Made by a program: the position numbers and the translations under genes. From a virus (Duplodnaviria > Heunggongvirae > Uroviricota > Caudoviricetes): a stretch of DNA of 64,000 nt. The stretch lies in the IMG/VR virus record IMGVR_UViG_2541047715_000004; one strand, written 5' to 3'. The notes under the pieces were generated by a model. The model searched no databases and was not told the DNA's origin. It was given only the letters and a program-made list of their open reading frames with translations. Shown here one piece after another: positions 15,603-56,944 of the stretch; position 1 is the stretch's first letter, and every line of letters starts with the position of its first letter.

Positions 15603-15677
15603 GATGGTGTAGCTCAGCGGTAGAGCAGTTGGCTGTTAACCAACTGGTCGGTGGTTCGAATCCACCCACCATCGCCA
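15603..15677 (+). tRNA. tRNA-Asn (GTT)
   Basis: Cloverleaf by eye: acceptor GATGGTG/CACCATC, D stem GCTC/GAGC, anticodon loop CTGTTAA, T loop TTCGAAT, CCA end. Confidence 0.8.
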
Positions 15678-15682
15678 ATTTA

Positions 15683-15769
15683 GGGGAGTTAGTCCGTAGA
15701 GGTAGCGGTGTAGACTGTAAATCTACTGTCATTGCGACTCGGGTGGTTCGACTCCATCACTCCCCACCA
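15683..15769 (+). tRNA. tRNA-Tyr (GTA), long variable arm
   Basis: Acceptor GGGGAGT/ACTCCCC, anticodon stem GTAGA/TCTAC with loop CTGTAAA, T loop TTCGACT, CCA end; D arm atypical. Confidence 0.65.
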
Positions 15770-15773
15770 AATT

Positions 15774-15849
15774 GCCGGTTTAGCTCAGTTGGTAGAGCGC
15801 CTGCCTTGTAAGCAGGATGTCAGCGGTTCGAGTCCGTTAACCGGCACCA
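15774..15849 (+). tRNA. tRNA-Thr (TGT)
   Basis: Acceptor GCCGGTT/AACCGGC, D stem GCTC/GAGC, anticodon stem CCTGC/GCAGG with loop CTTGTAA, T loop TTCGAGT, CCA end. Confidence 0.8.
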
Positions 15850-16076
15850 ACACAACAGGAAAGAGCATTGAAAACCGCCGAGACTGCCCTGTTTTAAGCG
15901 TAAGTCCGTGCAAACGTCATACAGTGCTCTTTTCGTTGTGGTTGATGCGCAGACTGATGCGCGGAAAGAAATGCCCCAGCGACACACGAGGCGAGTTCAC
16001 ACACTGCAATGCAGTCAGTAGCCGGGGTCGCTAAGCCGGAGATCAGTACCGGTAACCACAACAATTGGAGAGTAGG

Positions 16077-16163
16077 GAGCATGGTGCTCAAGCGGTCTTG
16101 AAAACCGTCCCATTGCGCAAGCGATGATGGTTCGATTCCATTACTCTCCGCCAGACACAGCGT
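16077..16163 (+). tRNA. tRNA-Ser (TGA), long variable arm
   Basis: Acceptor GGAGAGT/ACTCTCC, anticodon stem GCGGT/ACCGT with loop CTTGAAA, T loop TTCGATT, CCA end. Confidence 0.6.
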
Positions 16164-17019: not shown

Positions 17020-17832
17020 TTGTTTAACACTGCGAGGTTAAATGTGAGTAACAGAGATGATTTTTCCCCATCGGTGAAGCGAACACTAGCCGAACGCGTA
17101 GGCTGGAAGTGCTCTTATCCTGGCTGCAACCAGACAACTGTAGGTCCAGATAGCAGTGATACAAACAGCAGGATTAATAATGGTATTGCGGCACATATTA
17201 CAGCAGCAGCGCCAGGTGGACCGAGATATGATCCTAGCTTAACCCCAGAACAGCGAAGCTCGATTGATAACGGTATATGGATGTGTCGTTCACATGGCGC
17301 ACTCATTGACTCTGACTACACTATCTATTCCGTTGAGCAATTGAAAAACTGGAAGCAGCTGGCCGAAACTCAACAATCTCTTCTGCTACAGATGACGCAC
17401 CAGGTGAGTCAGAACAATTACTCAGAAAGAGACGTCGGTGTTTTAAAAGCCATTACTGATATTTTTAATTACAACTACCTCCAAATGCTGAAGAGCGAAC
17501 AGTTCCGGGCAAAAGTTAGCACCGACATTACCGACCCTCTCTACGCATTTGATAATATTGCCCATAACCCCTTTTACAGCTTCAATGATGTTGTTTTAGA
17601 AACAATCCGTATGGAGTTGGTCGGGAAAGTGAACAACTTTTGGGCGCTGTTCAGAGAACATTCTGCTGGAGGGCTTGGGTATTATGATTATATCGATATC
17701 CCCCATATCAGACGTTTTTATCCTGATCAGGTTGAGCGCTATTACGGAATCATTAACCAAACACAAGATCTGGCGTATGAAATCAGCATAACGGCACAGA
17801 AATTACTCGAAATTAGAGCAAAACTGCCGTGA
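17020..17832 (+). CDS. HNH-motif nuclease-like protein
   Basis: CSYPGC ... AAHITAAAPGGPRYD ... NGIWMCRSHGALID arrangement typical of HNH zinc-finger nucleases; 270 aa with extra C-terminal domain. Confidence 0.55.
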   Translation: MFNTARLNVSNRDDFSPSVKRTLAERVGWKCSYPGCNQTTVGPDSSDTNSRINNGIAAHITAAAPGGPRYDPSLTPEQRSSIDNGIWMCRSHGALIDSDYTIYSVEQLKNWKQLAETQQSLLLQMTHQVSQNNYSERDVGVLKAITDIFNYNYLQMLKSEQFRAKVSTDITDPLYAFDNIAHNPFYSFNDVVLETIRMELVGKVNNFWALFREHSAGGLGYYDYIDIPHIRRFYPDQVERYYGIINQTQDLAYEISITAQKLLEIRAKLP

Positions 17833-18069
17833 GTCATGACGATATCCCTCTACATAGTAGAGGGATAATGCACAAATAATAGGTAATGACTTACCTATTA
17901 TTTGTCGGTATAGTTCTTTCATTATTCACTTAAAAGGACTCAATATGGGAAACAAACGTAAACAGGCGCGTCGCGCAGCTCATCAGGCACTGAAGTCAAA
18001 ACCATGTATCCACTACTGCGAAATTGGCACAATCATCGTTAATGAACAGCAGTTGCACGAGGTGAAGTG

Positions 18070-55202: not shown

Positions 55203-55220
55203 TTTGTTCTGGCGTCTGTA

Positions 55221-55281
55221 ATTAGCCTGCTTCTGTATATATAAATAACTACATATTAATTATTAATATACGGAAGCAGGC
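55221..55281. repeat. long GC-stem / AT-loop hairpin element, copy 2
   Basis: GCCTGCTTCTGTATATATAAATA...TATACGGAAGCAGGC; near-identical arms to copy at 7745..7803. Confidence 0.6.
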
Positions 55282-55364
55282 TGTTTTATATCAGAGACTC
55301 CCAGACCTGAACACCACTACAGAATCCACTAGAACCCCTTCCCAGACGCTTTAAAATCGATTTT

Positions 55365-55619
55365 ATGAACCACTTTAAGGAAACCAACATGTCATACCCG
55401 ACTAATGTCGTTGCGCTCGTAGAGAGCGATTTTCTGGCCCAGGCTCGTGAAATGATGAAAGATCGTGAGCAGGCTTTCAACTTGTACGAATGGGCAATTA
55501 AGTGCTTGCATCTTGGGGAGCATCGCGAACTTGTTGAACAGCTTTTAGGTGAGTTGATCAACGAGGTGTTTGCCTTGAATGTTCAACTACATGGTCGAAA
55601 AAATAATCAATCGAAATGA
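55365..55619 (+). CDS. hypothetical protein
   Basis: 84 aa ORF. Confidence 0.35.
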   Translation: MNHFKETNMSYPTNVVALVESDFLAQAREMMKDREQAFNLYEWAIKCLHLGEHRELVEQLLGELINEVFALNVQLHGRKNNQSK

Positions 55620-56205
55620 TAGATAAGTACAAACTATTCATAAAGTGAATTGTAAGTGCTAAGATCTGATAGTTTCCAGTCGTAGACTGGAGGCTCGACC
55701 TGATGGGTGGGGGTAAGCGTCACTGGCGTCAGGTTTAAAAAAGCTCACTACCAGCGTAGAACCGGCACCGTTTAGGGGTTGGGGAAGGGGGAACCAAAGT
55801 GAGCAGAGACAAGGGTCACTTTATGATTGTCGAGTCTGGGGTGTTTCGAGAGGTTGAATCCAGTACTCCCCTTCATAAAGTGTGGGAAGATCTCGGTTCT
55901 GGGGTGCTGTCATCCATAACTTCCCAAGCCTAAGCTGGCAGTAGACTTAGGTCATAACTTTTCAGGTTATGAAACGACCAGGTTGGTGAGGAAATTTTGT
56001 ACTCACCTCCCTGGGAGAGTATTACCTGAAAAGACAACCTCTCACTTCGTTCGAGGTGAACTTCACTCACTTCGTTCGTTCAGTTCAGGTTTATAAAAAC
56101 CTGTTCTGGGAAGTAATTTGTTTATTTTAATAATTATTAACACGCACGCGTGTGCGCACGCGCGAGGAAAAAAAAATCGGCGCGGCGCTTGATTCAGGAG
56201 TTTAT

Positions 56206-56796
56206 ATGACGACGAAGACACCAGCCCGATCGCAAGCAAAAACTCGCAAAAATGACAAAAACAAAAATTCTCCCCGCACCAATTCCACAACGCCTGTCGT
56301 AGAGTTCAATCCCCAGCTTAAAACCGTGAAAATCTTCAGTGATGGCTCTTGCCTTAAAAATCCGGGTGGCCCGGGCGGTTACGGTATAGTTCTCCAGTAT
56401 GGTGGTGAGGAACGCGAGTTCTCAGATGGTTTTCATAGCACCACCAATAACCGCATGGAGATGATGGGGGCACTTATCGGGCTGGAGCGTTTGAAATATC
56501 CATGCAACGTTATTTTGTACTCTGATAGCCAGTATCTGAAAAACGGCATGACACAGTGGATGAAATGGTGGAAACGCAATGGATGGATGACTTCTGACAA
56601 AAAACCGGTAAAGAATGTTGATCTGTGGAAGCGTCTGGATGAGGCCGCAAGTCGACATAATGTTCGCTGGAAGTGGGTTAAAGGTCACGCCGGGCATCGT
56701 GAAAATGAAATATGTGATCGACTCGCGAAGATCGCAGCTTTTTCAGCAGCAGATATGCCTCACAAGAAAGATATTGGTTTTGTTTATAACAAGTAG
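56206..56796 (+). CDS. rnhA: ribonuclease HI with basic N-terminal extension
   Basis: KIFSDGSC...GGPGGYG and C-terminal HAGHxxNExxDxLA RNase HI motifs; about 40-aa Lys/Thr/Asn-rich N-terminal extension; start ambiguous (table ORF from 56152). Confidence 0.8.
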
Positions 56797-56944
56797 TAAG
56801 TAAGTGTTTACCTATCATTTTAAATCATGTATCTTATCAGCGTCAGGATGACAATGTGTCGGTAAGACACAGTTCCAGGATGGAACGAGAAAGGCGGCTG
56901 GCGATCGCCAGCCGCAACTCTTTCTGACACTGGATGGAGTCCAC

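Follow-up and report, generated by a model that had tools for sequence, protein, structure and literature searches.

The 64,000-nt stretch of the IMG/VR virus record IMGVR_UViG_2541047715_000004, called the window here, raises a simple question. Between a gene for a 76-amino-acid (aa) protein (55389-55619) and the ribonuclease HI gene rnhA (start codon ATG at 56206) lies more than half a kilobase of DNA in which no protein gene is apparent; what does this interval encode? The original prediction, made from the sequence alone, took it for a candidate structured noncoding RNA (ncRNA) or cis element upstream of RNase HI. The RNA in this proposal is supported by conservation above that of the flanking genes, compensatory base changes, an upstream promoter and a transcript in published RNA sequencing (RNA-seq) data. 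We are highly confident that the interval contains a real, independent gene for a structured ncRNA. With less certainty, we consider it probable that this gene is a stand-alone unit of ~440-460 nt on the plus strand, extending from ~55672 to 56117-56128, and a core component of SSU5/pHCM2-type phage-plasmids. Promoter and RNA together form a functional unit of ~55637-56128. All parts of the locus described below (55389-56796) are on the plus strand unless stated otherwise.

Conservation and coding potential of the interval

The region was compared by BLAST with those of phage SSU5, a Klebsiella plasmid, an Enterobacter plasmid and the divergent Salmonella plasmid pSAN1. A conservation island emerges at ~55694-56117, where the identity across genera is 86-98%, compared to 74-81% for the flanking genes. 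The 5′ half of the RNA (55694-55880) is 86-98% identical and the 3′ half (55881-56117) 94.5-98.3%, whereas dam shows 75-76%, the open reading frame (ORF) of 76 aa 75-78%, rnhA 76-81%, and the ORF after rnhA 71-83% over partial lengths. The 74 nt at the upstream end of the interval (55620-55693) gave no BLAST alignment between clades. In addition, 91 distinct full-length copies were assembled from plasmids, IMG/VR and metagenomes, following an earlier set of 55 distinct sequences; the core is at least 91% identical in all collected copies, while the RNase HI protein drops to 76%. The best conserved DNA of the region is an RNA rather than a protein gene in our reading, which RefSeq leaves without any annotation in complete E. 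coli genomes and one study lists as a “moron” protein gene.

The scarcity of ORFs noted in the original prediction was readily reproduced, as the longest ORF on either strand of 55620-56205 has at most 46 aa. Three candidate frames were followed through the 91 copies. The 44-aa ORF at 55799-55933, annotated as the hypothetical protein CYRAN_81 in Escherichia phage Cyrano, has a frameshift or stop codon in 29 copies; a 37-aa ORF is disrupted in 73 copies, and a 46-aa ORF on the minus strand in 41. The variable columns over the 44-aa ORF are distributed 11/9/10 among the codon positions, and the indels in the element are not multiples of three. A protein-coding reading was rejected, since all three candidate frames are broken and codon periodicity is absent; judged from the sequence, the CYRAN_81 ORF is spurious. 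Type I toxin-antitoxin systems of the hok/sok kind have a short conserved ORF for a hydrophobic toxin; across the 91 copies of the element no ORF is conserved, and the candidate peptides are not hydrophobic.

Covarying structure of the plus-strand RNA

The plus strand can be folded into ~17 helices. RNAalifold analysis of the 55 distinct sequences yielded 136 pairs, 16 of which show compensatory double changes; one spurious helix reaching into the promoter was removed before pairs were counted on the named structure. In this structure 99.6% of the cells are canonical, compared to 98.0% in column shuffles (0/500 reach this value), and 148 cells at 12 pairs carry double changes, compared to 42.6 ± 7.1 in the shuffles (0/500). 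Slid controls, in which the partners were moved by 1-3 columns, gave only 2-22 double-change cells and 34-48% pairing. Across the 91 copies, 99.5% of 12,012 cells are canonical. Compensatory changes occur in seven helices, namely the 5′ hairpin, helix 2 (55697-55735), GCUCAC/GUGAGC (55743/55799), its inner hairpin, 55817-55826/55873-55882, 55928-55952 and 56079-56110; the helices thus covary across distinct copies. The plus strand also has the lower folding energy (-167.8 kcal/mol vs -138.2 for the minus strand; RNAalifold -140 vs -104), and its numerous invariant G-U pairs would be A·C mismatches on the opposite strand.

The RNA is predicted to begin with a 5′ terminal hairpin at 55672-55694 (GUUUCCAGUC-GUA-GACUGGAGGC), the arms of which are wholly different between clades (TTTCCAGTC/GACTGGAGG, CTTTCCGGA/TCCGGCAG, CTGGCAGAT/ATCTGCCAG and ATTTCGA/TCGAAAT), with the pairing always kept and double changes at 4/7 pairs. 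Helix 2 (55697-55735) is a long hairpin of 15 pairs that are 100% paired, with a G-rich loop GGGUGGGGGUAAG and three compensatory pairs (A-U to G-C twice, and C-G to U-A). The following domain (55743-55804) is closed by GCUCAC/GUGAGC and comprises a hairpin CCGGCACC..GGGGUUGG and an invariant G-rich segment GGGGAAGGGGGAACC; its closing helix changes from U-A to C-G in 14/55 sequences (29/91), and the inner hairpin alternates among G-U, G-C and A-U. The segment GAAGGGGG (55784-55791) is able to pair with UCCCCUUC (55867-55874) over 8 bp, forming a candidate pseudoknot in which all bases are invariant.

The central multi-branch domain (55806-56043) follows the RNAalifold consensus, and its closure is predicted between GAGA..GGU (55806-55816) and ACCUCUC (56037-56043). 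It consists of the sub-helices 55817-55826/55873-55882 (CACUUUAUGA/UCAUAAAGUG, 10 bp), 55832-55865, 55883-55926 (UGGGAAG/CUUCCCA), 55928-55952, and 55958-56033 with 55978-56014. Compensation in this domain was found at 55819:55880 (C-G to U-A), 55929:55951 (C-G to U-A, 18/91) and 55930:55950. At the distal end, the 3′ hairpin (56079-56110, UUCAG..CAGG-loop-CCUG..CUGGG) keeps its pairing despite sequence change, with U-A to G-C in 8 sequences and a GGGA/TTCC variant in pSAN1. It includes the hairpin that the original prediction had placed near 56090, CAGGTTTATAAAAACCTG, which was found at 56086-56103.

The direct repeats reported earlier are all present, but they differ in weight. The sequence TTCATAAAGTG occurs at 55637 and 55872, and its first copy is the -35 region of the promoter, which is outside the RNA and limited to the E. 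coli clade. TCTGGGGTG occurs at 55835 and 55898 within a 14-nt repeat of 86% identity, and CACTTCGTTCG is part of an exact 13-nt repeat, CTCACTTCGTTCG, at 56041 and 56066. By our arithmetic for ~700 nt, an exact 13-mer pair is expected ~0.004 times by chance, an 11-mer ~0.06 times and a 9-mer ~0.9 times, the last being at chance level. The 13-nt repeat belongs to a repeat module at 56041-56078, in which CUCACUUCGUUCG at 56041-56053 and again at 56066-56078 encloses CGAGGUGA at 56052-56059. This middle element can pair with either repeat, giving alternative helices of 7-8 bp that are mutually exclusive, and every base is invariant in the 55 and the 91 copies; a switch operating through the module might be envisaged. 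Other invariant pairing modules are interchangeable as well: three CUCAC(U)U segments vs AGUGAG, GGUGAG and AGGUGA, three GGGAAG vs one CUUCCC, and GAGAGGUUG vs CAACCUCUC. They suggest conformational switching or intermolecular pairing and assembly.

G-richness, another property given for the interval, holds for the 5′ half, with a GC skew of +0.20 to +0.29 over 55500-55999, whereas the skew is ~0 beyond. A G-quadruplex was considered and dropped because the first G-tract is not conserved, changing from GGGG to GGTG in many E. coli copies.

Promoter, predicted RNA ends and transcription in the lysogen

A sigma-70 promoter was located at 55637-55665, with a -35 hexamer TTCATA (55637-55642), a 17-nt spacer, a TG at 55657-55658 and a -10 hexamer TAAGAT (55660-55665), thus displaying an extended -10 motif, TGcTAAGAT, in the window. 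The only invariant positions upstream of the RNA are those of TTnA...GTnnTAnnAT (T78, T79, A81, G97, T98, T101, A102, A105 and T106 of alignment A1), as was likewise seen in the 55 sequences, and a simple scan found a promoter-like site common to all 91 copies. The promoter geometry would place the transcription start at ~55671-55673, near 55672, at the foot of the 5′ hairpin.

At the other end, conservation ceases after GGGAAGTAA (~56117). The 3′ tail at 56111-56128, a conserved AAGUAA followed by a U-rich stretch, is the probable 3′ end of the unit, and the transcript is predicted to end at the 3′ hairpin and this U-rich tail, ahead of a variable spacer. The spacer (56129-56205) contains an AT-rich stretch, a palindrome at 56142-56164, an A9 run at 56168-56176, the GC-rich GCGCGGCGC at 56180-56188 and a Shine-Dalgarno sequence AGGAG at 56196-56200; it is 80-88% identical over partial lengths only and partly deleted in pHCM2. 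The alternating purine-pyrimidine palindrome ACGCACGCGTGTGCGCACGCGCG, highlighted in the original prediction, is present here but outside the conserved unit. It is partly deleted in pHCM2 and in L274, a cargo-swap variant that was read directly, and in L237, L272 and L276 the homology to the window already stops at 56128, ahead of it. A weak -10-like site ending at 56134 was found in 62/91 copies, and the spacer has no convincing promoter of its own.

Transcription is documented by published RNA-seq of Cyrano lysogens. In a study of E. coli LF82 prophages that reanalyzed strand-specific RNA-seq (PMC9928086), for which the public GEO dataset is GSE154648, CYRAN_81 is listed among the Cyrano “morons” at 12-fold over the prophage median. 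The S1 Table of that study gives log2(fpkm+5) values (fpkm, fragments per kilobase per million) for five conditions in duplicate, which are 6.82/6.92, 9.34/9.02, 6.94/6.89, 8.97/8.23 and 10.35/10.3 for CYRAN_81, 3.1-5.8 over all ten samples for the 76-aa ORF (CYRAN_80), and 2.6-5.0 over all ten for the RNase H gene (CYRAN_82) (PMC9928086). From these values, the element is 10-40 times more abundant than either neighbor. In level and in pattern across conditions it closely resembles the prophage repressor CYRAN_45, and the signal drops 10-40-fold between 55933 and rnhA. This contrast implies a separate transcript that is stopped or cut before rnhA. The top-expressed Cyrano feature in the same study is CYRAN_43 (window ~17410-17964, minus strand), a hypothetical protein beside the integrase, at 723-fold over background and log2 values of 11.5-14.9 (PMC9928086).

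Genome setting and distribution

The window represents a phage-plasmid of the SSU5/pHCM2 type. Over 1.6 kb around the element it shares 98.7% identity with Escherichia phage Cyrano (the pLF82 phage-plasmid), 82% with Salmonella phage SSU5, 78% with Klebsiella phage-plasmids and 100% with one E. coli plasmid of PLSDB. The phage-plasmid of the window possesses a RepA (IncFIB) replicon and its own helicase, primase, ligase, and DNA polymerase III alpha and epsilon subunits, in addition to T4-like gp32, UvsY and RecA-type genes. The element is placed in the early DNA-metabolism module.

In total, 687 of the 72,556 PLSDB plasmids carry the element; they come from Klebsiella, Escherichia, Enterobacter, Salmonella, Citrobacter, Cronobacter and Shigella, and include S. 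Typhi pHCM2 and many K. pneumoniae plasmids. Phage-plasmids of this type are common in clinical Enterobacteriaceae. Among 5,426 complete E. coli genomes, 232 (4.3%) are positive, and all but two of the places are on an SSU5-like plasmid. A blastn search (word 11) against 50,697 phage records matched 12 SSU5-like phages only. The element is neither variable nor absent within the lineage, as it is carried by all 188 of the 188 loci that have the 76-aa gene.

Searches for divergent relatives stayed within this lineage. Neither loci whose RNase H is at most 50% identical nor the remainder of the window gave a match to the family profile in nhmmer; two IMG/VR scans, one for the RNase HI protein and one for a 20-mer of the RNA, led back to the same lineage only; and a metagenome scan with the 76-aa-ORF alignment returned relatives of at least 78%, the full-length matches being all at least 80%. 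Literature searches covering SSU5, pHCM2, phage-plasmid ncRNAs and origins turned up no description of the element, the sole trace being the CYRAN_81 entry (PMC9928086).

Independence from rnhA and the downstream cargo slot

The gene rnhA (56206-56796) encodes an RNase HI with a 39-aa basic N-terminal extension, a peculiarity that the original prediction had pointed out; the Pfam RNase_H domain covers residues 40-178 of 196 (E = 2.3e-45), and the alignment with chromosomal RNase HI starts only at residue 38-39 of the window protein. The tie between the element and RNase HI that was implied at the time is incidental. The RNA is full-length but rnhA is missing in 12-14 of ~200 loci, where rnhA has been swapped for other cargo (among them L225, L237, L272, L274, L276, L277, L287 and L290). 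The window homology of these swaps breaks off at 56128-56179, either within the AT-rich spacer or midway in the GC palindrome, and the right breakpoints, where homology resumes within the fetched DNA, are mostly at 56709-56730 in the last 90 nt of rnhA. The cargo is co-oriented with the RNA and comprises a HEPN/DUF3644 zinc-ribbon protein that matches HEC-08 of PADLOC (E = 5e-146), a GmrSD-type enzyme matching HEC-06 (E = 2e-199), a TIR-NLR protein (E = 8e-166), an HNH type IV restriction-like protein, a lipoprotein, a LysR cassette and an IS3 transposase.

The cargo-swap plasmids retain an intact promoter and an RNA core that matches the window at 96-98% identity. The element is not a leader of rnhA, because RNA and promoter remain intact where rnhA is replaced by defense cargo. 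A 5′ leader or riboswitch-type cis regulator of rnhA was accordingly rejected: the linkage is not obligatory, the cargo is unrelated, and SSU5-type rnhA also exists without the RNA. The last point refers to two IMG/VR contigs of 19.7 and 38 kb (L070 and L071), in which an RNase HI 88% identical to residues 24-184 of the window protein lacks the N-terminal extension and is found in another context, with no copy of the RNA. Long leaders are absent before other phage rnhA genes. With the RNA as its upstream border, this slot is a hotspot at which anti-phage defense genes take the place of rnhA, which makes the RNA useful for plasmid annotation and cargo discovery.

One annotation at this locus deserves mention. 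In SSU5 (L002, NC_018843; 6742-7506), the RefSeq coding sequence SSU5_090, “Rnase H”, has 254 aa, with a start ~160 nt upstream, inside the conserved RNA, whereas the same RNase H gene is annotated with ~200 aa in the pHCM2 and E. kobei records. The SSU5_090 start was probably mis-called.

Upstream of the RNA, the 76-aa helical protein (phrog_5343, 55389-55619) is annotated as 84 aa from an upstream ATG. A role as a Rop-like RNA-binding protein found no backing in a Pfam match or a PDB sequence hit; its AlphaFold2 model is a helical bundle (pLDDT 74), with no significant Foldseek match.

Comparison with known RNA classes

The original prediction could match the element to no RNA family by eye, and covariance-model searches agree. 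Rfam 15 was searched at E values up to 10 with relaxed filters over 3 kb and 551 nt, and at the gathering level over the whole window, with no relevant match to any of its families, tRNA, tmRNA, RNase P, 6S, CsrB, RNAI, group I/II introns, GOLLD, ROOL, OLE, HEARO and riboswitches included; the best matches in 55660-56210 scored 15-21 bits vs thresholds of 45-56, and are unrelated families in the spacer. An ARAGORN scan for tRNA and tmRNA found nothing in the region.

In its architecture, the element resembles OLE, GOLLD, ROOL, raiA and HEARO, large structured RNAs of bacteria and prophages. Like these, it extends over several hundred nt with multiple helices and invariant stretches between covarying ones, is carried by a temperate mobile element, lacks an ORF, and was discovered via conservation rather than phenotype. 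However, it has no sequence or structure match to them in Rfam 15, resides in Enterobacteriaceae phage-plasmids rather than Firmicutes or marine prophages, has a very narrow phylogenetic range, is expressed in the lysogen and has no tRNA neighborhood. No described family fits, and the best reading is a new ncRNA family that is expressed in lysogeny and restricted to one phage-plasmid lineage.

Proposed mode of action and alternatives

We propose a model in which the RNA would be transcribed from the conserved sigma-70 promoter near 55672 in the plasmid (lysogenic) state, be stabilized by the 5′ hairpin, and stop at the 3′ hairpin and U-rich tail before the spacer. The folded RNA would then act in trans, bound by a conserved host or plasmid protein, rather than as a leader or antisense regulator. 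A trans-acting ribonucleoprotein (RNP) is favored because the 3′ half is nearly invariant across genera, beyond the needs of base pairing, and because no complementary target exists in its own genome window, where only chance-level 10-11-mers were found as antisense targets. This mode of action is put forward tentatively, as the foremost of several options rather than as a likely one. With slightly more caution still, the RNA might be the first example of a novel class of large structured RNAs specific to phage-plasmids, serving as an RNP core, a self-assembling scaffold or a ribozyme that acts in lysogeny on a conserved host machine. Large structured RNAs lacking a known function are rare and mostly found in organisms that are hard to manipulate; such a class, if true, would be accessible to genetics in E. 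coli K-12. Because the host elements replicate in and lysogenize laboratory strains of E. coli and Salmonella, the function of the RNA, its partners and its three-dimensional structure can be tested directly.

Several points weigh against the proposed gene and its trans action. The copies all come from one tight lineage, so the covariation rests on few clade-level, inherited events, and kinship among the sequences inflates the shuffle statistics; the shuffle z-score is equal on both strands (-4.5). The helices 3′ of 55958 (55958-56078) never vary, which makes the fold of this part an energy prediction only, and the invariance of the 3′ half could equally reflect a DNA-level or dual function. 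The RNA-seq counts cover the 135-nt annotated feature only, and, while the data are strand-specific, the counting may not have been strand-aware. Both the 5′ and the 3′ ends of the transcript are predicted positions; a simple scan found no canonical intrinsic terminator at the 3′ end and did not call the 3′ hairpin, and the U-tract is poor in the Klebsiella clade. The protein partner is putative, and the 76-aa ORF, the only perfectly co-occurring gene, gives no functional clue and is not co-expressed in the lysogen. Finally, a role in cis would likewise fit an RNA located just ahead of a co-oriented cargo slot.

The last point leads to the strongest alternative, which we nevertheless regard as unlikely: a cis-acting leader, attenuator or insulator, in which the lysogeny promoter and the folded RNA form a regulated terminator that sets the read-through into the slot gene, possibly by switching between alternative pairings. 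The downstream genes are co-oriented and the spacer offers them no convincing promoter, the signal drop ahead of rnhA is attenuator-like, and the repeat/anti-repeat/repeat module beside the 3′ hairpin permits mutually exclusive helices. The layout is also familiar, as type III toxin-antitoxin loci and P4 immunity share the order of promoter, abundant RNA, leaky stop and gene. The element matches the type III (ToxIN-like) loci and attenuator leaders in having a promoter, an abundant structured RNA, a leaky stop and a gene expressed 10-40 times less, but the tandem array of ~34-36-nt repeats typical of a type III antitoxin is absent. There is a single pair of 13-nt repeats, 25 nt apart, and the downstream gene is interchangeable (RNase_H by Pfam, or variable cargo) and does not belong to a toxin family. 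Against regulation in cis in general, the slot genes are functionally unrelated (RNase HI, GmrSD, TIR-NLR, lipoprotein, LysR, IS), with no evident ligand or logic in common, and the cargo genes begin 176-460 nt further on, behind unrelated DNA that possibly has promoters of its own. A 440-nt leader conserved above every neighboring protein would be unusual, and translational control is excluded because the Shine-Dalgarno region is not conserved.

An immunity or lysis-lysogeny RNA acting in the manner of P4 CI, P1/P7 c4 and N15 CA, which would pair with repeated sites on nascent early transcripts and silence the replication genes by premature termination, appears improbable. It would account for the repressor-like level in the lysogen with the same pattern across conditions, and for the location, since like those RNAs the element is made constitutively in the lysogen and is embedded, in the same orientation, in the early/replication module whose genes are silent there; the SSU5 Ant anti-repressor gene is ~1 kb downstream. 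The P4 immunity region has the layout seqA-seqB-seqC, which is mirrored by the element in placing a complementary segment (b, CGAGGUGA) between two direct repeats (a and a′, CUCACUUCGUUCG). However, the known immunity RNAs have 70-90 nt and the element is, at ~450 nt, five to six times larger and is not known to undergo processing. Such determinants usually diversify among related phages, whereas the element is almost invariant across genera. The 64-kb window has no extra copies of the target motif beyond chance 10-mers, with no distant target among them, and the phage-plasmid already has a protein repressor.

Less probable still is a replication primer or R-loop origin after the example of ColE1 RNA II or T4 oriF, in which a 5′-G-rich transcript would hybridize at the AT-rich spacer and RNase HI would process the primer for plasmid or lytic replication. 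ColE1 RNA II measures ~550 nt. The element shares with ColE1/pMB1 RNA II a folded transcript of ~0.5 kb with alternative pairings, expression in the plasmid state, an AT-rich 3′ region and an RNase H link in most members; the 5′ half is G-rich with positive GC skew, a stretch of conserved AT-rich composition but variable sequence precedes a GC-rich palindrome just 3′ of the RNA, and the T4-like gp32, UvsY and RecA-type genes are at hand. The RNA is, however, retained without RNase HI, several variants have lost the palindrome along with a portion of the spacer, and the G-richness is at the 5′ end rather than at the presumed hybrid site. No conserved minus-strand promoter of the RNA I kind was found within 55672-55900, directed toward the 5′ region, and Rfam RNAI gave no match; furthermore, a separate RepA (IncFIB) replicon is already present in the plasmids, and it is the only type assigned to them.

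Last in our estimate, and very improbable, is a site that works at the DNA level, for packaging, partition or recombination or as a conserved anchor for homologous exchange of the slot cargo, with incidental transcription. In its favor, the unit adjoins the cargo hotspot, whose breakpoints recur at 56128-56179 and 56709-56730; it also contains several short direct repeats, and its invariant 3′ half has no covariation information. Against it, compensatory changes in at least seven helices and the G-U strand asymmetry indicate that selection acts on a single-stranded molecule, and the unit has a conserved promoter of its own and a transcript. The breakpoints are outside the conserved unit, the terminase genes and genome ends are far away in SSU5 and Cyrano, and none of the findings speaks for a packaging or replication site.

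Other features of the window

Two hairpins flank the locus at a distance. A long hairpin, AT-rich and nearly perfect (AGCCTGCTTCTGTATATATAAATA...TATACGGAAGCAGGCT, then TTTTAT), occupies 55219-55284 immediately behind the Dam methyltransferase gene and probably serves as a terminator between dam and the 76-aa ORF. On the 3′ side of rnhA, a strong GC-rich palindromic hairpin, GCGGCTGGCGATCGCCAGCCGC, at 56894-56915 has a terminator score on both strands; it is situated in a spacer conserved at 80-85% and is kept at the right edge of the cargo swaps.

Elsewhere, four clustered tRNA genes (Asn, Tyr, Thr and Ser) were found at 15603-16153, compared to three (Asn, Thr and Ser) in the Cyrano annotation at the corresponding place. 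On the minus strand, 27978-28396 gave a full-length match to the Rfam cspA thermoregulator at 185.7 bits (threshold 78); from this match, the phage-plasmid has a cold-shock gene of the cspA type, including its long structured 5′ untranslated region.

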